Both the position numbers and the translations under genes were made by a program. From an uncultured Candidatus Saccharibacteria bacterium (GTDB lineage Bacteria; Patescibacteriota; Minisyncoccia; UBA6257; 2-01-FULL-56-20): a DNA stretch of 64,000 nucleotides. The number at the start of each line of letters is the position of its first letter. Position 1 is the stretch's first letter. The notes under the pieces are model-generated. The model did not search any database and had not been told where the DNA came from. It saw nothing but the letters and a program-made list of their open reading frames with translations. Shown here piece after piece: positions 1 to 39,450 of this stretch. Location: assembly GCA_964484655.1 (NCBI GenBank), contig CAZAFA010000003.1, positions 28,147-92,146 on the forward strand, in the 5' to 3' direction.

Positions 1-562
1 CGATTCCAATGGCCAGCATGGAGGCCGCTACTGCGCTCATGATCAGAATTAGTACAGAGCTAGAGGCTACATATTTCCAAGTTATACCTTCGAACTTCCT
101 ATAGAGTTTTTCGAGAATTCCCCAATAGATAAGGAACAACAAAGTTGAAAAGCCTGGGGAAACAAGGCGAGCAAATTTATGCCATTCATCTCCGTATAAG
201 CTGATCGTGTATTTCCATGTGTTGTAAAGAAACCATGCAATAGATGCCAATACGACTGTGCTTATGCCCGATGTGATATCTAGTCCTGTTTTCTTTCTAT
301 AGTGCTCTTCAACTTTCCAAGTAAATTTGAGGAAAGAGAAGCCCAACCACACTGATGTCAAAGATATTATTAATATCCATAAGAATTGGAGATTGGATAA
401 AGCAATTTTTGCTGCTGTATTTTCTGGGATATTTATATTGAGGAAGATTGCCCCAGTAGCAAGTAGAAATCCTGCAAAGGTTAGCCCTTCTTTTTTTTCG
501 TCCCAAAAGAGCTGAAAGGTTCTTGACAGACTAGGTTTAGCGAAATCTCCGTTCTCTGTCAT
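1..562 (-). CDS. Integral membrane protein, 3'-truncated by window edge. Low-GC ORF, start ATG at 560-562, multiple hydrophobic segments (MTENGDFAKPSLSRTFQLFWDEKKEGLTFAGFLLATGAIFLNINI...)
   Basis: Hand translation of the minus strand gives an uninterrupted ORF from 562 to position 1. It is not in the ORF track because it runs off the edge. GC is about 38% against about 67% for the window. Several predicted TM helices. Confidence 0.55.
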   Translation of the reverse strand, partial: MTENGDFAKPSLSRTFQLFWDEKKEGLTFAGFLLATGAIFLNINIPENTAAKIALSNLQFLWILIISLTSVWLGFSFLKFTWKVEEHYRKKTGLDITSGISTVVLASIAWFLYNTWKYTISLYGDEWHKFARLVSPGFSTLLFLIYWGILEKLYRKFEGITWKYVASSSVLILIMSAVAASMLAIGI

Positions 563-11701: not shown

Positions 11702-12184
11702 TTAGGCGTCGGCGCGCTTCGGCTTCTCCGACTTGATGCTCTTGAGCGCCTCGACGGCCGCCCAGGCGTTGGTGAGCTTGTTCGGCGTGCGGCCGAGCAC
11801 CTTCGCGGTGGCGTCCTTCACGCCGGCGAGCGCGAGCACGGAGCGCACGGCGGAGCCGGCGCGGAGGCCATGGCCGTGCGGCGCCGGCTTGATGCGGACC
11901 TTCGCCGCGGAGTACTTGGCCTCGGTCTCGTGCGCGATGGTGCGCTTCTCGCGGAGGGGCACGGTGACGAGCTCGCGGTTCGCCTTGGCCTTCGCCTTGG
12001 CGATCGCCTGCTGGACGTCGAGGCCCTTGCCGACCCCGATGCCGACCTTCCCCGCCTCGTCGCCGACCACGACGGTCGCGCGGAAGCGGAAGCGCTTTCC
12101 GCCCGCGACCACGCGCGTCACGCGGCGCATGTCGAGCACCTTCTCCTTGAGTTCCGCCTTGGGCTGGGTGAATTCGCGTGCCAT
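11702..12184 (-). CDS. rpsE: 30S ribosomal protein S5 (directly followed by rplO, no rpmD/L30 between)
   Basis: MAREFTQPKAELKEKVLDMRRVTRVVAGGKRFRF... Confidence 0.9.
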   Translation of the reverse strand: MAREFTQPKAELKEKVLDMRRVTRVVAGGKRFRFRATVVVGDEAGKVGIGVGKGLDVQQAIAKAKAKANRELVTVPLREKRTIAHETEAKYSAAKVRIKPAPHGHGLRAGSAVRSVLALAGVKDATAKVLGRTPNKLTNAWAAVEALKSIKSEKPKRADA

Positions 12185-29220: not shown

Positions 29221-30561
29221 ATGGCACGCCGCACCGGCCCGCTGGTAGCGCTCGCAGGCATCGCCGCCCTCGCGGCGCTCTGCGTCGCCTCGCCGCGCTT
29301 CCTCGCCTTCTTCCATCACTACGCGAACTTCCTCGCCGTCGGGAGATCCTCGACGAAGCTGGCCGCGCTCGGCATCCTCGCGGCGATCGCCTGCGTCGCG
29401 CTCCTCATGCGTCCTCTGATGGCGGAATCACGTGCACGCAAGCTCCTCCACGGATGCCTCTACGCGCTGCTCGGCATCTCGCTGCTCTCCACGCTCGGCA
29501 TGGCTCTCCTGGGCGCGCGCATGGGCGTCCCCCTCAACACGACCTTCTACGCGGTCAACGACCGTGAGTTCAGCTTCAGCCACCTGACCCACAGCCATCT
29601 CCTCAGGCCAGTCAGCTATCCGGCACAGGCTGTCGTCAGCAACGAGGTCGGCACCGCATGGTTCGACGTGCTGCGTACGTTCTTCGGGATACCCCGTCCG
29701 GCGCTCGTCGCATTCTACGGCGCCTATGCGGCCTTCCTCGCCGTACTCGGCATCGCGAGCCTCGCGTACCTCCAGCACCTGCGCGGCGGCGCGCTCATCG
29801 CGCTCTATCTCGCCGGCATCGCCGCGGTCCTCAAGAGCGGCGTGGACGGCGCGTTCCTGGACCTCGCGGCGCTGCTCGGGATCCTCGTCATCGGATGGAT
29901 GCTGCGGGACCGCTTCCTGGCGCTGCTGCCGGTTCCCTTCCTCGTCTTGAACGCGTACGTCTGGTTCACGCCGACCTACGGCGCGCAGCTCGCCGTCAGC
30001 CTCATGCTCTTCGGATGCCTCGCGCTGATCCTCGCCGCGACGCGTTCCCGCGGCATCCTCCGCCTCGCCAGCTCCGGGGCAGCCCTGCTCGTCGCGCTCG
30101 CCTTCGTCTGGGGCGGGAGCCGGGTCTCCTTCTTCGGCGGCGACGCAGAAGCCGCGACGCCTTCGGACGAGCCTGTCATCCCGGCCCAGCAGGCCGTGTA
30201 CTTCCTCCCGCGCGGATCCGGCTTCCCGCAACGGGTCACGACGACCGCGACGACGAGCCCGGCTGCGTTCGTGCGCGCGCACGACGCGGTCTTCGAGAAC
30301 CTCCAGGAATCGCTGCGCATGCCAGACAGCACCTGCCGCGAAGGCCAGCGGCAGATGCTCCTCACGAGGATACGCATCTTCACGCCGGCTGCGGAAGCCG
30401 CGGAGTCGTTCAGCGTGCCCCCCTGGATCGAAGCTGCCTACAGCAACGGGTACTACCGCGTCACCATGGATTCCTGCATGCCGAACCTCCTGCCTTCGCT
30501 GGTCAGGACCGTGAAGACGAGGTTCCCTGACGAGGTCATCGTGATCGCCTTCCTGCGCTAG
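29221..30561 (+). CDS. Polytopic membrane protein (about 9 TM) with a C-terminal soluble domain, function unknown
   Basis: 446-aa ORF with many hydrophobic helices. Convergent with, and overlapping by 26 nt, the CarS-like gene. Confidence 0.5.
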   Translation: MARRTGPLVALAGIAALAALCVASPRFLAFFHHYANFLAVGRSSTKLAALGILAAIACVALLMRPLMAESRARKLLHGCLYALLGISLLSTLGMALLGARMGVPLNTTFYAVNDREFSFSHLTHSHLLRPVSYPAQAVVSNEVGTAWFDVLRTFFGIPRPALVAFYGAYAAFLAVLGIASLAYLQHLRGGALIALYLAGIAAVLKSGVDGAFLDLAALLGILVIGWMLRDRFLALLPVPFLVLNAYVWFTPTYGAQLAVSLMLFGCLALILAATRSRGILRLASSGAALLVALAFVWGGSRVSFFGGDAEAATPSDEPVIPAQQAVYFLPRGSGFPQRVTTTATTSPAAFVRAHDAVFENLQESLRMPDSTCREGQRQMLLTRIRIFTPAAEAAESFSVPPWIEAAYSNGYYRVTMDSCMPNLLPSLVRTVKTRFPDEVIVIAFLR

Positions 30562-31066
30562 CGGCGTGCAGGGCAGCAGAGCGGATGCCGAACGCCGCCG
30601 CCGCGGCGTTCGCGGTCGCCTGGAACCCGAAGACGAAGACGAGGTAATATACAGCTGAGAATCCTGGCGGATGCACGTCCAGGAGAGACAAGCCGATGAT
30701 CACCGCCAGCGCGTAGTCGACGTGGTCGAGTACCGACCGCGTGCCCTCCTTCATGCCCAGCCGGCGCTTGACGAAGCTGCTCGCGAGAGTGCCGGCAAGC
30801 GCGAAGAGCCCGAGCATGAAGCCGAGCCTCGGATCGCCTTGCAGCCATCCCACCGTCCCGGCGCAGAGTACAATGAACGCGGAACCGGCGACGGTACGGC
30901 TGTCCCCGAGGATGCGATGGCGGCCGAGACGTCGCCCGCCATCGAGCGGCGTCGCGGGCAGGATCCGCCAGCGCGCGATCAGGAAGTACCAGAAGACGGC
31001 GGTCGCGGCGTTCGCGATCCAAGCAGGAGCACCGTACCACACGGTGCTCATGAGCAGATCGATCAT
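30536..31066 (-). CDS. CDP-archaeol synthase-like (DUF46/CarS family) CTP-transferase membrane protein
   Basis: WRILPATPLDGGRRLGRHRILGDSRT and C-terminal SFVKRRLGMKEGTRSVLDHVD match the CarS/CdsA-superfamily signature. 176 aa, 4-5 TM. Its start overlaps the LamG gene stop (ATGA). Confidence 0.55.
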   Translation of the reverse strand: MIDLLMSTVWYGAPAWIANAATAVFWYFLIARWRILPATPLDGGRRLGRHRILGDSRTVAGSAFIVLCAGTVGWLQGDPRLGFMLGLFALAGTLASSFVKRRLGMKEGTRSVLDHVDYALAVIIGLSLLDVHPPGFSAVYYLVFVFGFQATANAAAAAFGIRSAALHAASAGRRSR

Positions 31067-32718
31067 CTAGGCGTCATCGGGTCTGGGGGTTCGTCGCCGC
31101 CGCCCGGAGGAGGCGCTCCAAAGTACAAATTATGCAAGGCGATGATATCGCTCTGGCTAAGGGCCCCGTTATAGATGCGCAGCTCGTCAATGGTGATGTC
31201 ACCATCTCCCTTGTTACCGAGGCTCATATAGTCTCCGAATATTGACGTTTCGCTCGATGCAGGATGCGAAGGATTGCTCCCATACGTCTCGAAGAGCAGG
31301 ATGCCATCCTGATACACCATGCCATGCCCACCCTCGCGAACAATGGTTATCATCTTCCAACTATACGGGGCAAGCGTGTTGGTATTAGCTGAAAGCCAGG
31401 TAGCCCATCCTCCGTCAGCTTTTGACTCACCAAAAAAGGACCAACCGCTTGGGTCTCCACCGTATCCCGAGATGCGACTTCCCGCCTGTAGGCGAATATG
31501 GTAATCGACCTGCAATCCGTCGAGGTCACCCTTCTTGAAGACATTCCATTGCCGAGATGAATCAGACACGGACCCGTCCGCGTTAACGTTCCATAGGAAG
31601 TTGATACTCATATCTCCAGGGAGCTGCATGGACGGTGAATCGGGCACGGTCATTCGATTGTTTGAAAAGAGCATACCTGTGTTGCTGAAGCCGGCTGGCC
31701 ACGAATTTATGTCGAAGGTGCCATAGTTCAAATATTCACTGTTGTCTCCAGCGGTATTGCCGCTACCCTCGTCAAAAGACCAATGTCCGACTAATGTCGC
31801 GATTACTCCGCAAGTATTGTTCGCGTTGTAGATGCTGTCATTACAGTCGATGCCTACCTGCTGTATATAGCGCCGCCTGCCGTTGGTAGGAGCGGAATCT
31901 TGCAGATACATCGTACTGGCCGCAGGATAACCGTCTGCATCAGAGTCAACCTGCCAGATGTTTGTCTGAAGGATGGCACAGCCGCCGCAGAGCGCGATAC
32001 TTCCGTTCGAAAGGATCGAAATTTGCATACCGCTGTTGAAAGCGAAGTTTGCATTAAGCGTCAAGGAATTATTGATGGTAACGTTGCCGTTATCGACTCC
32101 GTCCGCTGACGATATGACGCAGGGATCGTCCTTGTCCCCAAGGGTATAGTCGCCTCCTGGTGGAATACCGCAGGCGTCGGACCAAGCGAGAACCACTGAT
32201 GAGGAATCATTACCTGCCTCGGCCGTGATGGTCGTATAGTACTTGGTGTTATGCGTGTCGTGCACGACCCACTCTCCACGATAGCGTCCGCGAATAACCT
32301 CATCTGCAAAAGCATTCTGCGTATTGGTCTTTTCGCGACCAGCTACGAAGCCGGCAAGCCGATCCGGCACAGCCTCAGCAACTCCGACATAAGCTAGATT
32401 CAACCGAACGATCTTGTTGTCAGTCTCAATGTCAGCATAGACCGCAGTGACCGGTCCGCGAGATTCGATGACCGCCTCGATGACCTGCGTGTCGCCGACG
32501 TGCACATCAGGCGGGTTGATCGTCGCCTGGACGATCTTCGGCCATACCTCGGCCGCCTGTGCGATCGAGTAAGTCTGCTCGCCGCTCGGCAGGTTCGCGA
32601 GAGGTCCCGTTGGTGCAGGTTTGTCGAGCTTGTCGTAGTAGCTTATCGGGAGGAGTGCGAGCACCGCAATCGCGAGAAGGCTCCCCGCTCCTAAGCCGAA
32701 CATGAGTTTCCTATTCAT
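31063..32718 (-). CDS. Secreted or anchored protein with a C-terminal LamG/concanavalin-like lectin domain. Locally lower GC.
   Basis: N-terminal signal/TM (MNRKLMFGLGAGSLLAIAVLALL). C-terminal LVGHWSFDEGSGNTAGDNSEYLNYGT...LRIYNGALSQSDIIAL is typical of the Laminin_G_3 domain. Asn/Ser/Gly/Cys-rich middle. Confidence 0.6.
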   Translation of the reverse strand: MNRKLMFGLGAGSLLAIAVLALLPISYYDKLDKPAPTGPLANLPSGEQTYSIAQAAEVWPKIVQATINPPDVHVGDTQVIEAVIESRGPVTAVYADIETDNKIVRLNLAYVGVAEAVPDRLAGFVAGREKTNTQNAFADEVIRGRYRGEWVVHDTHNTKYYTTITAEAGNDSSSVVLAWSDACGIPPGGDYTLGDKDDPCVISSADGVDNGNVTINNSLTLNANFAFNSGMQISILSNGSIALCGGCAILQTNIWQVDSDADGYPAASTMYLQDSAPTNGRRRYIQQVGIDCNDSIYNANNTCGVIATLVGHWSFDEGSGNTAGDNSEYLNYGTFDINSWPAGFSNTGMLFSNNRMTVPDSPSMQLPGDMSINFLWNVNADGSVSDSSRQWNVFKKGDLDGLQVDYHIRLQAGSRISGYGGDPSGWSFFGESKADGGWATWLSANTNTLAPYSWKMITIVREGGHGMVYQDGILLFETYGSNPSHPASSETSIFGDYMSLGNKGDGDITIDELRIYNGALSQSDIIALHNLYFGAPPPGGGDEPPDPMTPR

Positions 32719-32721
32719 GCT

Positions 32722-35700
32722 CTACGGGATTATGAAGCCGGTCGCCTTGTCGGTTGTGCGGTTGCTCCACGAATCAGCATCGAACCGCGGCGCGGTAAAG
32801 CGATAGCTGACCTCGACCGAGTCGCGCTTCTCGAACGGGGTAGCGATGATGGTCAGCGTGCCGTCGCCCTTCTCGTAGCGTACGCGGCCGTCGAAGCCAG
32901 GAGTCAGGAGGATTGAGGCCTTCGGTAGATGCTTGCGGATGTCGGTCACCTTGCCGAAGAGCCAGAGATCGGAGCCATGGTCCTCCTTGGCGAAGTCGAT
33001 GAGCTTCACGCAGCGGCCGTCCACGCATGAAATCTCGAGATCGCCAGCGACCTCTTCCTTCACGCCGATCATACCGGCCATGTAGGTCGCGAACTTTTCG
33101 TTTCCAATCTGATAGATCGGGTCGATAGTACCGACGTTGATCTTTCCTGCGCCATCTCCGATGGTGAGCGTATCCCCTGAGCTGGTACCGATTCGCGCGG
33201 TCGTGCCGCCGGCGCTTGCGACGTCGAGCAGGTACCCCGGCGTCTTGGTGCCGATACCCACGTTGCCGCTCGCGAAGAAGGTGTAGACTCCGCCGCCGCC
33301 GCCTGACGCGAGAGCGATCTGGTTGGTGGTCGTGCCGAGATACCCGTTGCGGAACTGGATCGCCGACCACCAACTCCCCTCACCTTCGATCGTCAGGCCG
33401 TTGTAGCCGTTGTCATAGATCCGGTTGCTGATGCTGCCGTTGCTGTGCCAGGCAAGCGAGGATGAGGTGTTCATGATCAGGCGATCCGTGGATCCGAAGT
33501 TCGGGAAGGCAGAGGCGCCTGAGATTCCAAGTACTAAGTTTCCGCTCTGCGTGATGCTGGCGATTTCGTTGCCGCCTGTGTTGAAGATACCGAGGCGATT
33601 TGCTGGAAGGCTCACGTCGTTGCTGCCACGGTTATCGACGAACCAGGTGTTCGAATTGCTCGTGAAGTTGATGCCGGCGATACCAGATCCCGTGCTCGCG
33701 GCTATCCGCGCCTGGCTGCTGCCGGTTGTGCCGACGCTCAAGAGGTTACCGCTGGCGGTTGTACTCAGCGTCACAGTGCCTGGGAACGTGTAGTTCCCGC
33801 CGCCGGTGTTCGCGCCGAAACTTCCCGAAGAAACGTTGGCTGCCGCGATCGTGCCACTGCCGCTGGCTGCGGTTGTCTGTGTCGTGCCGTCCGGGAAACG
33901 GAATCCGCCCGACGAGCTATAGATGGTACCAGCGACTGTAAGCTTGTAGCCAGGCGTCGTTGTGGCAATACCTACGTTTCCGTTCGCTTGTATCTTCATC
34001 AAATTACCGCCACCCGCGCTTGTGAACTGCCAGTATTCATTAGTTCCACAGCCGGTCGAACCAAAGGTAACTTGCTGCGCTCCTGCTATGTACTGGGCGA
34101 ACATACCGCAGGAATCAGCAGCATTATTCGCGAAATAAAGTGCCCCACTTCCAATATCAAGGCGTCCACTTGGTGTAGCGATGCCAATACCGACGCTCCC
34201 GTCTGATCGAACGGTGAGGCGCTGCGTGCCACCAGTTGAAAGACTGATGGTGTCGCCTCCGCTCCAATACAAACCTGTATTGGTATCACCTATCGCGGCC
34301 AGCGACGGTGCTGCCGCGGATCCGTTCGTCATCCCAACCGTGCCGTCGGCCATGACGCCAAAGTTGGTGCCCGTTCCACCGACACCTCCATCACCCGCGG
34401 GACCGACGCAGAAGCGATATGTGCCACCATAGCATCCTATGCCGACCTGCTGACCGAGGAAATAGGTATCCCAGCCACCGCCTGCGCCGATCACCGTGTT
34501 GCTCGGATTGTTGCTGTTACCGATGACAAGTCTGCCGAGCGGCTGATTCGATACCGCATTGAGCGTGGTGAAGCCGGCACCTCCTGTTGCACTCACGTTG
34601 AAGTAGTAATTACCGCTGGCATCACCGTTGAAGCGTACACTGCCAGGGAAGGTATAAATGCCGCCGCCAGTATTTGCCCCAAACTGTCCGGATGAAACAT
34701 TTGCGGCAGACATTGTTCCCGCTGCCGCCGTCGTCTGAGTCGTACCATCGGGGAACCGGAACCCACCTGAGGAGCTATGAATAGTGCCTACTACTTGGAG
34801 CTTGTACTGGGGATCGCTGGTGCCTATGCCGACATTACTAGTGCTCCAGTCAATATTGAGAAGATCGACCCCGGCCGTCTCGTCCCGAATGATGAAATCG
34901 TAGTAACGCCCGGTCACTGCAGCTCCGCCGTACGGAGTAAGGATGCTGTACGTCTTTGTGTTGGAGCCGTTACCTGACGCGATCCGCATCGCAGCATCGT
35001 TCTGGTACGTATTTGATCCAAGCTGGAGTAAGGATCCGGGGCTTGTCGTTCCGATACCCGTGTTGCCGTTAGCCAGAATTGTCATACGTACGTTCGCGTT
35101 CGTGCCAAAACTCAAGGGATGATTCGAATATGTGCCAAGAATCATGCCCGCTGGTGCGCCCCACCAACCGATCTCATGCGCGAGAACGCGTGCATCGATA
35201 GCTGCAGTACGAACTGATAGCTTCGCGTGGCTGGCGCCAAGGATATCGAGTACGCGGCTCCAACCCTCACTATTCTCTGGCGAAGTGGTCCCCACTACGA
35301 CATGCGCAGGAAAGGCGTAATTTCCGCCTCCAGTGTTAGCGCCGAACGAACCAGCGGAGATGTTTGCTGCTGCCATAGTACTACTTCCAGAAACAGCTGC
35401 CGTCGACTGTGTCGTACCGTCAGGGAACATGATGTAGCCCGCGCTAGTGATCGAAAGAAGTCTGGTGCCCGCGCTATTCTGGGTATCGATGATGTTTGCC
35501 GACTGGCTGGCTGCTCCGCGCACAACCATGACTGGCTGCGTCGCGGTCCAGGCATTGCCGAAGAAGTTCGCTGCCGACTGCGCGCTGCCGACGCCGAAGT
35601 AGGAGCGCATATTGGCCGTGTCATAACCGAAATTCGTGCCAAGGATACCGGTCGTGGTAATTCGGAACTGTTCTGTTGAATTTGGCCTGAATACAAACGG

Positions 35701-36354
35701 AAGTGAAGCATTAGTATCAAACCAGAGTCCGGTGCCTCCGTATCCGAAGATGGTTCCGACCGGGGATCCGTTACCAACAAAGCTAATTGTAGGATAGTAG
35801 CCCCCTGCAGGAGCATAGAGTGTCAGACCCGGGTTTACTGAGGACACGTCGGCATAGATACGACTACCGCCCAAACTCGTCCTGTTAATATCGAGATTAT
35901 ATGAGGGAGCGGTACCGATACCGACGCTTGAAGGGAAGGTATAGTTCCCGCCACCCGTGTTCGCACCGAACTGGCCCGAGGAGACGTTCGGGGCTGACAT
36001 GGTGCTGCCCAGCGCGGTCCCGTTCACAGTCAGCGTCCCCTGGACGTTGGTCGTGCCGTCGTTGCGCACCCAGAAGAGCGAGGATCCGGCGGAGTTGTAG
36101 GCGTGGACGGCATACGCCGCGGAGGTCGTGCCGCTGCCGTAGACGTTCAGGCGGTTCGCCGACGCGACCGTGCTCGATCCGATAGCGACGTTGTTACTCG
36201 CATCGGTCGCGATTGCGCCGCTGCCGACGCCGCCAGAACCGGAAGGCCCGATGAACGCGTCAGCGACGCTGATCGCGATCACGCCCGCTGCGATGAGGCC
36301 GGATACGCCGAGCGCGATCAGCCCGAACGCTGGTGATGACTGCCGGAGGCGCAT
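32722..36354 (-). CDS. Giant (1210 aa) Gly/Ser/Thr/Asn-rich cell-surface repeat protein with fibre-like, beta-helical-looking repeats
   Basis: N-terminal signal/TM (FGLIALGVSGLIAAGVIAISVADA). Four copies of an (M/I)SAANVSSG(Q/S)FGANTGGGNYTFPG motif and three copies of FRFPDGTTQTTAA. A compact C-terminal domain of about 110 aa. Confidence 0.6.
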   Translation of the reverse strand: MRLRQSSPAFGLIALGVSGLIAAGVIAISVADAFIGPSGSGGVGSGAIATDASNNVAIGSSTVASANRLNVYGSGTTSAAYAVHAYNSAGSSLFWVRNDGTTNVQGTLTVNGTALGSTMSAPNVSSGQFGANTGGGNYTFPSSVGIGTAPSYNLDINRTSLGGSRIYADVSSVNPGLTLYAPAGGYYPTISFVGNGSPVGTIFGYGGTGLWFDTNASLPFVFRPNSTEQFRITTTGILGTNFGYDTANMRSYFGVGSAQSAANFFGNAWTATQPVMVVRGAASQSANIIDTQNSAGTRLLSITSAGYIMFPDGTTQSTAAVSGSSTMAAANISAGSFGANTGGGNYAFPAHVVVGTTSPENSEGWSRVLDILGASHAKLSVRTAAIDARVLAHEIGWWGAPAGMILGTYSNHPLSFGTNANVRMTILANGNTGIGTTSPGSLLQLGSNTYQNDAAMRIASGNGSNTKTYSILTPYGGAAVTGRYYDFIIRDETAGVDLLNIDWSTSNVGIGTSDPQYKLQVVGTIHSSSGGFRFPDGTTQTTAAAGTMSAANVSSGQFGANTGGGIYTFPGSVRFNGDASGNYYFNVSATGGAGFTTLNAVSNQPLGRLVIGNSNNPSNTVIGAGGGWDTYFLGQQVGIGCYGGTYRFCVGPAGDGGVGGTGTNFGVMADGTVGMTNGSAAAPSLAAIGDTNTGLYWSGGDTISLSTGGTQRLTVRSDGSVGIGIATPSGRLDIGSGALYFANNAADSCGMFAQYIAGAQQVTFGSTGCGTNEYWQFTSAGGGNLMKIQANGNVGIATTTPGYKLTVAGTIYSSSGGFRFPDGTTQTTAASGSGTIAAANVSSGSFGANTGGGNYTFPGTVTLSTTASGNLLSVGTTGSSQARIAASTGSGIAGINFTSNSNTWFVDNRGSNDVSLPANRLGIFNTGGNEIASITQSGNLVLGISGASAFPNFGSTDRLIMNTSSSLAWHSNGSISNRIYDNGYNGLTIEGEGSWWSAIQFRNGYLGTTTNQIALASGGGGGVYTFFASGNVGIGTKTPGYLLDVASAGGTTARIGTSSGDTLTIGDGAGKINVGTIDPIYQIGNEKFATYMAGMIGVKEEVAGDLEISCVDGRCVKLIDFAKEDHGSDLWLFGKVTDIRKHLPKASILLTPGFDGRVRYEKGDGTLTIIATPFEKRDSVEVSYRFTAPRFDADSWSNRTTDKATGFIIP

Positions 36355-36363
36355 GGGTACCGC

Positions 36364-36927
36364 TTAGCGCGACGCGACGACGAGATAGCCGATCGGGCCT
36401 TGCGAGGGACCGCCGAGGTTGCTGCAGAAGAACTGGTACTTGCCGGTCGCGGTCGCAGGCGGCGTCACTTCGATGAGCTGTTCGCGCTGCGACGTGAACG
36501 TTGCAGAGAGCCCGAGGTCGGGCTGCACGAACGAGCAGGTGCCGCTGGTCGTCTTGAAGCGGATCGAGGTCGTATCGCCAGCGTGCACGATAACATTCGC
36601 AGGTGAGAACGTGTTTCCGTTGAACGTAATGTCGAACGTGCGCCGCTTTGCCTCGACACCCGGCGCGGCCGGAGCGACGCTTACCGGCACGGCGACATCG
36701 CCGCTTACCTGTGCGCCCGCGTCAGGTACGACGATGTCGGTTGGGACTTCGGACCGGGTCGTCGTCGTCGCTACACCTTGGTTCTGGTTGCCGTTCTGAC
36801 CTCCCTGTCCGGCGGGAGCCTTACGGGCGATCGACCAGCCGATGAGCAAGCCCGCAGCGAGAACCGCGGCGAGGATAGCTATCTCGGCGACCGTCACGAG
36901 ACGAGAGCGAGTTTCGGGGTTGTTCAT
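36364..36927 (-). CDS. Membrane-anchored extracytoplasmic protein with a weak resemblance to a cupredoxin-like beta-sandwich
   Basis: ORF trimmed to MNNPETRSRLVTVAEIAILAAVLAAGLLIGW (TM anchor). Low-complexity Gln/Asn/Gly linker, then a beta-rich domain ...VIVHAGDTTSIRFKTTSGTCSF...KYQFFCSNLGG. Confidence 0.4.
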   Translation of the reverse strand: MNNPETRSRLVTVAEIAILAAVLAAGLLIGWSIARKAPAGQGGQNGNQNQGVATTTTRSEVPTDIVVPDAGAQVSGDVAVPVSVAPAAPGVEAKRRTFDITFNGNTFSPANVIVHAGDTTSIRFKTTSGTCSFVQPDLGLSATFTSQREQLIEVTPPATATGKYQFFCSNLGGPSQGPIGYLVVASR

Positions 36928-36970: not shown

Positions 36971-37798
36971 CTAGAGCGCGACCCAGACGTAGCTCGAGCT
37001 TGCGTTCCGCAGGCACGCCTCAATCGAGTCGCTCCCCGCTCCGGCCTGGGTCACCCAGAGCATGCCGCGGATGCTGCTGGTACAGCTCGGCTTCCCGGAA
37101 GCGGTGTTCAGGCGCACGCCGCCGTCCACCTCGAGCTTCGCGTTCGGGCTCGCCGAGCCGATGCCTACATTGCCCGAGGAGAAGTAGATGACGTCGTTGA
37201 TGTTGCTCCAGAGCTGTCCGCTCGCGCCGAGCTTGTACGCGTTGCTCGAGCTCGGGAGGACGTCCGCGTCGAAGCTCGCGGCGGAGACGCGCGTCACGAG
37301 GACGTCCAGGAAGCGCGCGACCTGGCGCGTCGTCGCCTGCGCGTTGCTGATCGTGAGGTTGACGCTGAGCGCGTCCTTGCCGCCCGGGTTGCTCCTCTTG
37401 GTGAACGTCGCGTTCGCGACGGTGACCGCGTCGGTGGTCAGCGCCTGCGCGGCGTCATTCCCCTGCTTCAGCCATACCTTGCTGTCGCTGACCCAGATGC
37501 TCGTCGGGTCCACCGACGAGCTCGCCATGCGCAGCATGACGCCCGAGGAAGCGACGGCGGACGTCCCCTCGATGTAGCTGCTCTGCTCGACGAGGCGCTG
37601 CACCTGCGCGAGCACGAAGTCGCTCTGCTGGTTCACCTCGTTGCTCGCGCTCTGCTTTGCCTGCACGCGGACGACCGCGACGAGGATCGAGATGAAGGAG
37701 ATGCTCACGAGCGCGAAGATCGCCGCGAACAGCAGCAGCTCGATCGTCGAGAATCCCTTTCGCGAGACGGTACGCTTCATGCCGGAAGTATACCGCAT
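36971..37798 (-). CDS. Type IV pilin or pseudopilin-like protein
   Basis: Class III leader with KG|FSTIELLLFAAIFALVSISF (prepilin peptidase site, E+5) and a C-terminal disulfide loop C-x22-C. The start is ATG at 37798 or 37780. Confidence 0.7.
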   Translation of the reverse strand: MRYTSGMKRTVSRKGFSTIELLLFAAIFALVSISFISILVAVVRVQAKQSASNEVNQQSDFVLAQVQRLVEQSSYIEGTSAVASSGVMLRMASSSVDPTSIWVSDSKVWLKQGNDAAQALTTDAVTVANATFTKRSNPGGKDALSVNLTISNAQATTRQVARFLDVLVTRVSAASFDADVLPSSSNAYKLGASGQLWSNINDVIYFSSGNVGIGSASPNAKLEVDGGVRLNTASGKPSCTSSIRGMLWVTQAGAGSDSIEACLRNASSSYVWVAL

Positions 37799-37806
37799 CC
37801 GCTCCC

Positions 37807-39356
37807 CTAGCTGCTCGCGGCGCCTCGCGTCTTCGGCGTCACCCAGAAGCCGAGCCGGAACCGGCCGCCGAGCGCGAGACGCGTCTGCGCCTCCAAGCCT
37901 GGGAAAGCGCCGAAGACGATCAGCGAGAGCGGGAGGAGGAGCCACTGCAGCACGAACCACGCGTACTGCCGCTTCCTGAAGTTGGCTGGACGCGGCGGAA
38001 GGAGCGTGATCGCCATGATCGCCGACGAGACGATCGTCACCATGGAGAGGGTGATGACGAAACGCGTGATGCGCGGGAGGTTGTACGAGAGGAGCGTGTT
38101 GTTGAACGCCTCACCGCCGAGCATGAGCGGGAGCCAGCCGAGCACGAAGATCATGATGCTGTTGGTCGCCCAAGAGTGGAATCCCTCGAGGCCGGAGAAG
38201 GTCCAATAGAGCTTCTTGCGCAGCGCGATGCGCTTGTTCTCGATGAATCCCTCGAGCATGTACGGCATGTTCTCGACGCCCCAGCCCCAGCGGCGCTGCT
38301 GCTTGTAGAGGTTGATCATGGTCTTCCAGAAGCTCGGGACGACGTTCGCGTCCATGTACACCGGGAAGTGGAGCGGTACCACCGAGAAGTCGCCGTCGTA
38401 GCGGAAGAACGCCTGCCAGAAGATGCGCGAGTCCTCTGAGACGACGTCCTTGTGCCAGTACCCGACGTCCATGAGGAGCCGCAGCGGGACCGCCTGCGAC
38501 GAGAAGGTCGTCAGGCGCTCCGGCCGGGACTGCTGCATCATCTGCCAGAACGTGCAGCTCCAGGCGATGACGCGCCCGAGCGCTGGCGTCTCGTACACGT
38601 TGTTGGTGAAGAACGGCACCGGCTGATAGATCTTCCGGAGCGGGTCGGGCGAGGTGAGGTAGGCGTGCGCGACGCGGCCGAAGTATCCGTTCGGGATCTG
38701 CGTGTCCACGTCGAAGACGGAGACGATGACGCGACGGGGGTCGACGCCCTTCTCGGTGATGAGCTTCGGCACCGCGATCGCCCCGGCGTACGCCTCGTTG
38801 CTCCCCTTCCCCTGGATCTCGCCAGGCAGGCCGTCCGGATGGACGGTGACGAGGAACGAGCCGAAGCGCGACCCGAACTCCTCCTCGATCAGACGCGCGG
38901 TCTCGAGCGGCGCGTCGCCTGCGCGCTCCTCGAGCGCGAGCACGACGTCGAACGACTCGAGCGGATAGCGCGCCTGCGTCAGGGAACGGAAGCTCTCGCG
39001 CACGAGCTCGTACGGCTCGGTGTACATCGGCAGCATGATGAGATGCCGGATATCGCGCCACGAGCCGATTCCCTCGACGGTGAGATCGTCCGGTTTGAGC
39101 TCGTCGAGCCGCGCTTCCCAGTCCACGTCGAGGTTCGCGCGCAGCTTCTTGTAGGTGGACCGGAGGTGGAACGCGAGGAAGACGGACTTCAGGAGCCAGT
39201 ACGTATCGAAGAGGATGATGAAGATGGCGGCCCAGACCGGCACGAGCCATGAGGCGAGGACCATGCCGACGAGTGTCGCCCAGGCGAGGATCGCCGGCAC
39301 TGTCTCGAAGAACCGCATGCGGCGGCTCTTCCTGGCGGGATACGCGTCGGCGTCCA
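37807..39356 (-). CDS. Processive family-2 glycosyltransferase (cellulose/chitin/NodC-type synthase-like). Integral membrane.
   Basis: ORF 37807..39651 trimmed to MDADAYP. Motifs VFDVDTQ (DxD) and QQRRWGWG (QxxRW). N- and C-terminal TM bundles. Confidence 0.65.
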
Positions 39357-39450
39357 TCTGATGCAATGGTAGCGCGCAGGGCGCTTGAAGCCTGGGGATA
39401 CTACGCCCGGCTTCACGGAGCGGCAAGGTGGCCATGCTATCCTCCTTTAT

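Follow-up and report, generated by a model that had tools for sequence, protein, structure and literature searches.

Introduction

The mosaic adhesive trimer (MAT) fibres of Bdellovibrio bacteriovorus, 21 in number and including Bd2133, are homotrimers of intertwined beta-helices with capping loops (Caulton et al., 2024; PMC10769870). In the general plan of these fibres, a signal peptide precedes a conserved N-terminal domain, and the C-terminus is formed by an S74 chaperone-protease or by another fold; in Bd2133, the second beta-helix domain (N814-A907) is followed by a stalk-like linker and by a tip domain that begins at W913, and a mutation at I888 was needed for tolerance of a C-terminal tag (PMC10769870). 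No Patescibacteria figure among the other organisms for which MATs have been listed (PMC10769870). The present analysis concerns a gene (32722..36354, minus strand) within a 64,000-nucleotide stretch of DNA, hereafter the window, from an uncultured Candidatus Saccharibacteria bacterium (assembly GCA_964484655.1, contig CAZAFA010000003.1). The gene encodes a protein of 1210 amino acids (aa), which is probably a secreted, N-terminally held and homotrimeric surface fibre of a Paceibacterota-like member of the Patescibacteria, belonging to the same structural kind as MATs and phage tail fibres.

Two Conserved Motifs at the Module Boundaries

The open reading frame starts with ATG and was called identically on two independent Logan assemblies. 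An original prediction, made from the nucleotide sequence and its translations, proposed that it contains four near-identical copies of a long motif and three copies of a short one, and both sets were recovered by a pattern search, the long copies also with a family profile. The long motif has the consensus xxAxNVSxGxFGANTGGGNYxFP, and its four copies begin at aa 119, 327, 548 and 836; the repeats themselves stand, whereas their length was revised from about 29 aa to a conserved core of 23-25 aa. The short motif, FPDGTTQ[ST]TAA, was located at aa 310, 534 and 820 by the pattern search, and its first copy reads IMFPDGTTQSTAA, not FRFPDGTTQTTAA as had been given. A long motif starts 3-6 residues, rather than the 10-15 residues proposed, past the end of the short motif (14-17 residues start to start) and opens the next module, the linker residues between the two being Gly, Ser or Thr. 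The long motifs are spaced by 208, 221 and 288 aa and thus have no strict periodicity, but delimit modules of unequal length. The family profile matched each long-motif copy with an independent E-value of 1e-16 to 1e-19 and detected no further copy in the six-frame translation of the window. The overall composition (G 16%, S 11%, T 11%, A 10%, N 7%) agrees with the G/S/T/N-rich tracts that had been described between the motifs.

The long-motif copies are 68-88% identical to one another at the protein level, but only 68-75% identical at the DNA level, and in each pair 10-14 of the 17-21 identical residues are encoded by different codons. This low DNA identity, together with the many synonymous codon changes, indicates that the repeats are old and have been kept by purifying selection, in line with the functional constraint, as opposed to recent duplication, that had been argued for. 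The identical, recombination-prone DNA repeats that had been considered are not present, and repeats of this divergence would not be substrates for repeat-mediated slippage.

The same consensus was found across the family. In a set of 120 homologous proteins (designated by P and a number), 145 copies of the long motif occur in 59 proteins, and the most frequent residue accounts for 90-99% of these copies at eleven positions, among them N4 (97%), S6 (94%), G8 (97%), F10 (99%), N13 (90%), T14 (92%), G15 (97%), G16 (91%), G17 (99%) and F21 (97%). A HMMER search of 1.84 billion cluster representatives with the long motif identified 549 proteins at E <= 1e-3, with one to six copies each, and the window fibre ranks fourth best among them. 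All homologues that carry the long motif and have a source name are assigned to Patescibacteria, Paceibacterota or Parcubacteria. The long-motif profile found nothing among the PDB chains, the MAT tip constructs included, and the motif matches no Pfam family. Neither the long motif nor the C-terminal domain of the fibre was found in 2.9 million IMG/VR contigs, in a pattern-based scan that does not prove absence, and a word-indexed search with the junction alignment returned 207 candidates and just two short fragments.

After the F-P that ends the long motif, the family consensus continues as x-N-V-G-I-G, and copy 1 of the window fibre runs straight into a capping loop. Module bodies that share no relationship follow the same long motif, which is most simply read as an independent connector that would start the trimer afresh past the linker. 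The position of the motifs at the domain boundaries favours a role as a junction or assembly module over a receptor-binding site, so that of the two roles originally offered the former is retained and the latter is not.

Similarity to Solved and Annotated Trimeric Fibres

The tail-fibre-like character that had been proposed for the protein is supported by matches of several kinds. A capping-loop motif (V-G-I-G/N-small-x-x-P-x-x-x-L) occurs six times, at aa 144, 432, 508, 721, 794 and 1032, and all six copies match the published alignment of MAT capping loops (PMC10769870). The segment at aa 654-862 is similar to Bd2133 (PDB 8OND chain A; E 1.5e-13), two PHROG tail-fibre families match aa 665-739 (E ~1e-13), and cyanophage tail-fibre genes match aa 668-822 with 30-36% identity. 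In the 8OND alignment, NVGIATTTPGYKLTVAGTIYSSSGGFRFPDGTTQTTAASG of the fibre is paired with NVGIGATAPTAKLEVAGTIHSTSGGIKFPDGSVQTTAASG of Bd2133, and the 24-residue core VxGTIxSSSGGxxFPDGxxQTTAA is identical at 18 of 24 positions to VAGTIHSTSGGIKFPDGSVQTTAA, which forms the last strand of the second beta-helix domain of Bd2133. When residues are counted back from W913, the FPDG strand of Bd2133 (FPDGSVQTTAA) lies at the very end of the beta-helix and I888 falls within the GTIHS segment. Since this strand ends the Bd2133 beta-helix just before the thin linker, the short motif is taken to be the closing strand of a module. The ends of modules 2 and 3 consist of a capping loop (NVGIGxxxPxYKLxVxG) followed by the strand TIxSSSGGFRFPDGTTQTTAA; that of module 1 is its short motif, with no capping loop ahead of it.

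The N-terminus has the signal or anchor segment that had been anticipated, and the most hydrophobic windows of the protein begin at aa 9-13. The same leader layout, with A-x-A followed by F-T/I-G-P, is present in about 20 homologues, and the leader-like segment and the 85-aa N-terminal domain are shared by 27 of the 120 homologues at 32-57% identity. Four of these 27 proteins (P0025, P0042, P0057 and P0060) terminate in Peptidase_S74 (PF13884), whereas others, like the window fibre, have a different terminal domain. The window fibre itself gave no PF13884 hit at E <= 1; its only SDxxxK motif is part of a capping loop (aa 513), and the last 250 aa contain none. Against the fibre, no family of Pfam or NCBIfam reached its threshold; the sub-threshold Pfam hits to Tcp10_C (aa 819-836) and CsgH are ascribed to chance resemblance of a short beta-hairpin motif.

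Mosaic Modules and Third-Codon-Position GC Content

As originally stated, the sequences between the motifs have diverged: the module bodies are approximately 20% identical to one another, which is the level of shuffled sequences. A BLASTP search of the fibre against itself at E <= 1e-3 detected no internal repeats, which is explained by the shortness of the motifs and the lack of similarity between module bodies. Module 1 is closest to one module of P0006 (51% identity), and module 2 is 40-48% identical to the module upstream of Peptidase_S74 in P0034, P0036, P0037 and P0031; module 3 has no relative above 32% identity, and for module 4 the identity to modules of the closest relatives, P0002-P0004, is 49%, with 69-76% for the C-terminal domain in these proteins. 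The fact that each module is nearest to a module of a different protein, together with the unrelated bodies, indicates a mosaic make-up.

The GC content at third codon positions (GC3) also changes along the gene. Housekeeping genes, which define the background, have a mean GC3 of 0.93 +/- 0.04 and a minimum of 0.81. The N-terminal domain, at 0.86, is near the genome's own level, and values of 0.59, 0.57, 0.56 and 0.77 were obtained for module 1 (aa 119-326), module 2 (aa 327-547), module 3 and module 4 (aa 836-1070), respectively, and 0.80 for the C-terminal domain. A two-breakpoint likelihood scan placed breaks at codon 137 (support 125-144) and codon 845 (support 798-851), with a log-likelihood gain of 41 compared with a maximum of 11 in shuffles; the resulting three segments have GC3 values of 0.86, 0.57 and 0.79, and the whole gene 0.67. 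The first break lies almost wholly within motif copy 1 (aa 119-143), and the second in or beside copy 4 (aa 836-860). Amino acid composition was ruled out as the cause of this pattern, because segments alike in amino acids differ in GC3. A block of approximately 700 codons thus looks as though it was imported, with its seams at the conserved joints. The motif may promote crossover, or only recombinants joined at module boundaries may survive.

A relative of the fibre, P0005, shows the same module-wise GC3 patchwork, with the first breakpoint again at its first motif copy. In this protein (locus L003, 8001-11924), modules 1 and 4 begin with an identical long-motif copy, are both 148 aa long and have GC3 values of 0.56 and 0.57, and modules 3 and 5 are equally long (214 aa) with values of 0.83 and 0.85; this arrangement suggests an internal duplication of a multi-module block. 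In the window, the gene downstream of the fibre gene has a GC3 of 0.61 and, like the fibre gene, lies far below the background; two upstream genes, encoding a prepilin-type and a glycosyltransferase-like protein, are at background level (0.94 and 0.92).

A C-terminal Domain Shared Across the Candidate Phyla Radiation

A distinct C-terminal domain was correctly foreseen, although it measures about 140 aa (aa 1071-1210) rather than about 110 aa. It is the best-conserved part of the protein, with 30-77% identity in 35 homologues of 700-1925 aa, in all of which it occupies the extreme C-terminus. Modelling with AlphaFold2 and a 26-sequence alignment predicted a beta-sandwich with two short helices (model residues 81-170; block-mean predicted local distance difference test (pLDDT) scores of 83-97). 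The nearest folds to this model are weak matches to distal domains of tailspikes and tail fibres and to H-type lectins; the best matches in BFVD are phage tail proteins (E 4.6e-6, query-normalised TM-score 0.49), and the BFVD matches include collagen-repeat phage proteins. The domain matches no Pfam family, and its profile hits in the PDB are at chance level only (E >= 0.4).

A scan of GTDB species genomes based on a 12-sequence alignment of the domain, with two of its peptide patterns, identified 179 confirmed loci; a scan with the single protein gave no relative. Nearly all of these loci belong to the Candidate Phyla Radiation (CPR), namely Paceibacterota, Liptonbacteria, Jorgensenbacteria, Falkowbacteria, Gottesmanbacteria, Collierbacteria, Roizmanbacteria, Woesebacteria and Minisyncoccia. 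Neighbourhoods were analysed in 85 fetched loci (designated by L and a number). One of the loci with the domain (L030) comes from a contig that was placed in the Micrarchaeia (DPANN archaea), which could reflect cross-domain sharing or a binning error. About 20 records (L011, L020, L025, L031, L034, L037 and others) are titled "uncultured Gammaproteobacteria" or "Pseudomonadales"; these titles are probably automatic mislabels, as the proteins share their architecture with those on Collierbacteria, Roizmanbacteria and Gottesmanbacteria contigs.

Proteins bearing the domain range from 230 to 3256 aa and include capping-loop fibres, collagen-like proteins and prepilin-type proteins. The domain caps collagen-like G-X-Y proteins, with runs of <=1023 aa, in nine loci (L020, L025, L029, L034, L041, L050, L053, L066 and L083), and it also occurs in prepilin-type proteins (L049, L059, L063, L068 and L069), those of L049 and L063 being homologues of the prepilin-type gene of the window. 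Its association with obligate trimers supports a putative role in trimer registration, and its presence on short pilin-type proteins suggests that it may also have a function of its own at the exposed end.

Gene Layout and Neighbourhood

The features of the fibre and of the adjacent genes are listed in Table 1. Five genes, encoding a glycosyltransferase-2-like protein, a prepilin-type protein, a cupredoxin-like protein, the fibre and a 551-aa protein, follow one another on one strand with gaps or overlaps of a few bases, and the order is retained in about a dozen CPR loci. The cassette opens with a gene that is 55-86% identical in syntenic loci and whose product looks like a processive polysaccharide synthase. 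The cupredoxin-like gene ends 9 nucleotides (nt) ahead of the fibre start; it keeps this place in L003-L006, L009, L012, L014, L021 and others, and its product was found by tblastn in 20 of the 85 loci. The downstream partner has an N-terminal membrane segment and a Laminin_G_3 lectin-like domain (aa 411-525), the latter being an add-on specific to the window genome; its first ~300 aa are encoded on the same strand downstream of the gene for the C-terminal domain, within ~1.5 kb, in more than 20 of the 85 loci. By analogy only, the pair would recall a phage tail-fibre gene followed by an assembly or adhesin gene. Promoter and terminator scans within the cassette gave results at or below chance level.

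The window flanks encode RecG, TsaD, a tRNA synthetase and ribosomal protein operons, as well as EF-Tu and EF-G, and no other phage-like gene was seen near the fibre locus. These flanking genes and the synteny of the cassette in CPR loci indicate a cellular locus and not a prophage. The closest homologue of the fibre is on a contig titled Candidatus Paceibacterota (L006), and a syntenic relative is located on a 698-kb scaffold.

Table 1. Features of the fibre protein and its gene cassette; coordinates are those of the window and all features are on the minus strand.
Feature	Residues (aa)	Coordinates	Sequence or remarks
Signal peptide or membrane anchor	1-33	36256..36354 (-)	Basic start, hydrophobic aa 9-31, VADA↓F
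Conserved N-terminal domain	34-118	36001..36255 (-)	FIGPSGSGGVGSGAIATDASNNVAIG...FWVRNDGT...
Long junction motif, copy 1	119-143	35926..36000 (-)	MSAPNVSSGQFGANTGGGNYTFPSS
Capping loop directly after long motif copy 1	143-155	(-)	SVGIGTAPSYNLD
Module 1 body	144-307	35434..35925 (-)	
Short motif, copy 1, closing module 1	308-320	35395..35433 (-)	IMFPDGTTQSTAA
Long junction motif, copy 2	327-351	35302..35376 (-)	MAAANISAGSFGANTGGGNYAFPAH
Module 2 body	352-505	34840..35301 (-)	...ENSEGWSRVLDILG...SNHPLSFGTNANVRMTI..NTGIGTTSP...
Capping loop and short motif, copy 2	506-544	34723..34839 (-)	SNVGIGTSDPQYKLQVVGTIHSSSGGFRFPDGTTQTTAA; shares 18 of 24 residues with VAGTIHSTSGGIKFPDGSVQTTAA of Bd2133
Long junction motif, copy 3	548-572	34639..34713 (-)	MSAANVSSGQFGANTGGGIYTFPGS
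Module 3 body	573-791	33982..34638 (-)	From ~aa 654 homologous to MAT and phage tail-fibre beta-helix
Capping loop and short motif, copy 3	792-830	33865..33981 (-)	GNVGIATTTPGYKLTVAGTIYSSSGGFRFPDGTTQTTAA
Long junction motif, copy 4	836-860	33775..33849 (-)	IAAANVSSGSFGANTGGGNYTFPGT
Module 4 body	861-1044	33223..33774 (-)	Last capping loop GNVGIGTKTPGYLLD at aa 1030-1044
Predicted C-terminal beta-sandwich domain	1071-1210	32725..33144 (-)	KINVGTIDPIYQIG..KFATY..GVKEE..GSDLWLF..LTP.FDG..VSYRFTAPRFD
Glycosyltransferase-family-2-like multi-pass membrane protein		37807..39435 (-)	QQRRW motif; Glyco_trans_2_3 E 1.3e-4, under curated cut-off
Prepilin-type protein (269 aa)		36971..37780 (-)	MKRTVSRKG↓FSTIELL...; one capping-loop motif VGIGSASPNAKL
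Cupredoxin-like small membrane protein (187 aa)		36364..36927 (-)	Pfam Cupredoxin_1 E 1.2e-9
Downstream partner gene (546-551 aa)		31063..32718 (-)	Starts 3 nt past the fibre stop codon

Several further observations were made in the window. A gene of the CDP-archaeol synthase family (CarS-like; Pfam E 9e-11; 30536-31066, minus strand), here in a bacterial genome, shares 4 nt with the end of the fibre cassette. On the same strand, the gene for ribosomal protein S5 (11702-12184) is followed after 10 nt by that for L15 (11272-11691), with no L30 gene between them. Lack of L30 is a trait of the CPR, and this S5-L15 arrangement is consistent with a CPR genome, although the overall GC content of ~66% is unusually high for the CPR.

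Comparison with Described Fibre Systems

The layout of the protein resembles that of MAT fibres such as Bd2133 in several respects: a large, putatively secreted protein of ~1000 aa, in which a leader-like segment precedes an N-terminal domain conserved within its own family; a beta-helix fibre with repeated NVGIGxxxPxxKL capping loops; a VxGTIxSSSGGxxFPDGxxQTTAA strand followed by a thin linker ahead of the next domain; relatives with an S74 or a non-S74 C-terminus, the window fibre ending in a predicted self-contained beta-sandwich; and mosaic evolution. It differs in that it belongs to another phylum and cell plan, in that the long NVSxGxFGANTGGGNY motif is missing from all PDB chains, MAT tip constructs included, and in that MATs combine a constant N-terminal domain with varied tips, whereas the C-terminal domain is the most conserved part here. 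Patescibacteria are generally regarded as single-membraned.

With phage S74 tail fibres and tailspikes (such as the K1F endosialidase and the T5 L-shaped fibre) and with cyanophage fibres, the protein shares the capping-loop triple beta-helix segment at aa 654-862, a modular, recombining architecture and a companion gene directly downstream. The window fibre, however, has no S74 domain, possesses a Sec-type leader and is encoded at a chromosomal locus without phage genes, and neither its long motif nor its C-terminal domain was found in the phage collections scanned.

Two other systems offer analogies. In trimeric autotransporter adhesins (YadA, BadA and UspA), heterologous cassettes are joined by short conserved "necks", and the number and order of cassettes vary among strains. 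The likeness of the window fibre to these long, cassette-built surface fibres with short conserved connectors is functional only, as it has no match to such domains in Pfam or NCBIfam and no C-terminal YadA-type beta-barrel, its C-terminus being predicted as a soluble beta-sandwich, its anchor is N-terminal, and the organism probably lacks an outer membrane. In collagen-like proteins, for example BclA of Bacillus, it is a known principle that a C-terminal globular domain sets the register of three chains. The C-terminal domain of the fibre, which ends G-X-Y proteins in the nine CPR loci listed above, may be comparable in this respect, but it shows no sequence match and no strong fold match to C1q/TNF-like domains.

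A Model of the Fibre and Its Alternatives

From these features, we infer a trimeric fibre displayed on the cell surface. The chain would consist of the Sec-type signal or anchor (aa 1-33), the N-terminal domain (aa 34-118), four unrelated, beta-rich modules and the terminal beta-sandwich (aa 1071-1210). The repeated motifs would be the joints between the modules, the short motif closing one module and the long motif opening the next; the three copies of a long motif, one from each chain, may pack round the fibre axis and bring the three chains back into register, and such a universal connector would allow unrelated cassettes to be joined. The C-terminal domain would form the exposed far end, where it may nucleate the trimer and carry binding, possibly together with the downstream protein, and the cell would use the fibre to attach to its host. 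A trimeric state is supported indirectly, because relatives that share the N-terminal domain end in S74 and because the same C-terminal domain ends collagen-like proteins.

Several points weigh against this model. Significant similarity to any solved or annotated fibre covers only ~17% of the protein (aa 654-862); modules 1, 2 and 4 are assigned by their motif content and by relatives that are themselves uncharacterised; and any homology of the N-terminal domain (85 aa) to that of MATs (~130 aa, beta-rich) is putative, the likeness being one of layout. The C-terminal tip is conserved across CPR classes, which is the opposite of the receptor-binding tips of phages and MATs, and this strong conservation argues against the domain as the sole variable determinant of host specificity. 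In addition, a single-chain AlphaFold2 model of aa 296-580, comprising two junctions and module 2, was poor (pLDDT 51.8). The structure prediction that had been put forward as a check, with disorder as the refuting outcome, therefore gives no usable refutation, since a poor single-chain model is what an intertwined trimer would be expected to give.

The alternative that best survives, although we regard it as unlikely, is that the fibre is not anchored in the membrane but sits on the tip of a type IV pilus and works with the prepilin-type protein encoded two genes upstream, the C-terminal domain being their shared working end. In about a dozen loci, the closely packed cassette includes a true prepilin gene (KG↓FSTIELL) that bears a capping-loop motif, prepilin N-termini are fused to long-motif-bearing modules in P0104 and P0023, and the five loci with prepilin-type proteins named above show these proteins finishing with the C-terminal domain of the fibre. 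Type IV pili are reported to mediate host association in cultivated Saccharibacteria (PMC9894109; PMC11623550). The fibre itself, however, lacks the prepilin cleavage motif G↓F(T/S)(L/I)(I/L)E and has a Sec-type leader and its own conserved N-terminal domain, and the adjacency of the prepilin and fibre genes could be mere co-regulation of surface structures.

It is improbable that the protein is a monomeric beta-solenoid associated with the cell wall or S-layer, in which the repeats would be simple internal structural repeats. The G/S/T/N-rich, beta-rich sequence and the short strands throughout the single-chain model are compatible with a monomer, but the only solved homologue is an intertwined trimer, S74 domains, which are chaperones of trimeric proteins, occur in relatives, collagen-like repeats end in the same C-terminal domain, and the motif repeats of the fibre are not periodic and separate unrelated module bodies.

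Another proposal concerns the long motif, which contains invariant Asn and Gly residues as well as two N-x-S/T sequons (N-V-S and N-Y-S/T) and might be conserved mainly as a modification or ion-binding site. Besides the high conservation of N4 and S6, N18 is conserved in 84% of copies and S/T at position 20 in 78%; a glycosyltransferase-like membrane protein is encoded within the cassette, and the Bd2133 tip has ions on its three-fold axis (PMC10769870). Sequons are, however, not enriched in the whole protein (18 observed and 17.7 expected), no oligosaccharyltransferase was seen near the locus, and the glycosyltransferase-like protein resembles a polysaccharide synthase of the processive type. 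We consider this proposal improbable as the main cause of conservation, and it is compatible with a connector role, not a replacement for it.

Finally, it is very improbable that the gene encodes the tail fibre of an integrated phage or tailocin, since the PHROG and cyanophage matches, the low GC3 of the fibre gene and its downstream neighbour and the phage-like order of fibre and companion genes are set against the absence of phage-like neighbours between RecG, TsaD, tRNA synthetase and ribosomal operons, the synteny of the locus in several CPR genomes, the Sec-type leader and the failure of the pattern-based IMG/VR scan, which does not prove absence, to detect the long motif or the C-terminal domain.

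The trimeric surface fibre is thus the reading that we favour. The most fitting description of the protein is that of a non-S74 variant, from Patescibacteria, of the MAT or tail-fibre type of trimeric mosaic adhesin, a kind that is already known. A more tentative extension is that Patescibacteria possess a cassette-exchange system for host-contact fibres, in which the long motif would serve both as a universal trimer connector and as a recombination seam for foreign beta-helix cassettes, and the CPR-wide C-terminal domain as a common docking or working end.

Possible Implications for Host Attachment in Patescibacteria

In the literature searched, which was incomplete, no description was found of such fibres in Patescibacteria or the CPR, of the long connector motif, of the CPR-wide C-terminal domain with its companion gene, or of compositional signs of cassette import at joints. 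Type IV pili and unnamed adhesins are reported to be required in the few cultivated species of Patescibacteria (PMC10633639; PMC9894109). How these ultrasmall bacteria recognise and hold their hosts is largely unknown, and the locus provides a concrete candidate: a family of tail-fibre-like proteins with exchangeable middle modules, two uncharacterised conserved elements (the junction motif and the C-terminal domain) and a conserved companion gene. If some of the Saccharibacteria record titles are correct, many of them being automatic, homologues of the C-terminal domain exist in a genetically tractable group, in which the idea would be directly testable. The conserved connector motif could also serve the engineering of chimeric fibres. 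If the cassette-exchange proposal is true, the locus would be one of the chief factors deciding the hosts to which an episymbiont can attach.

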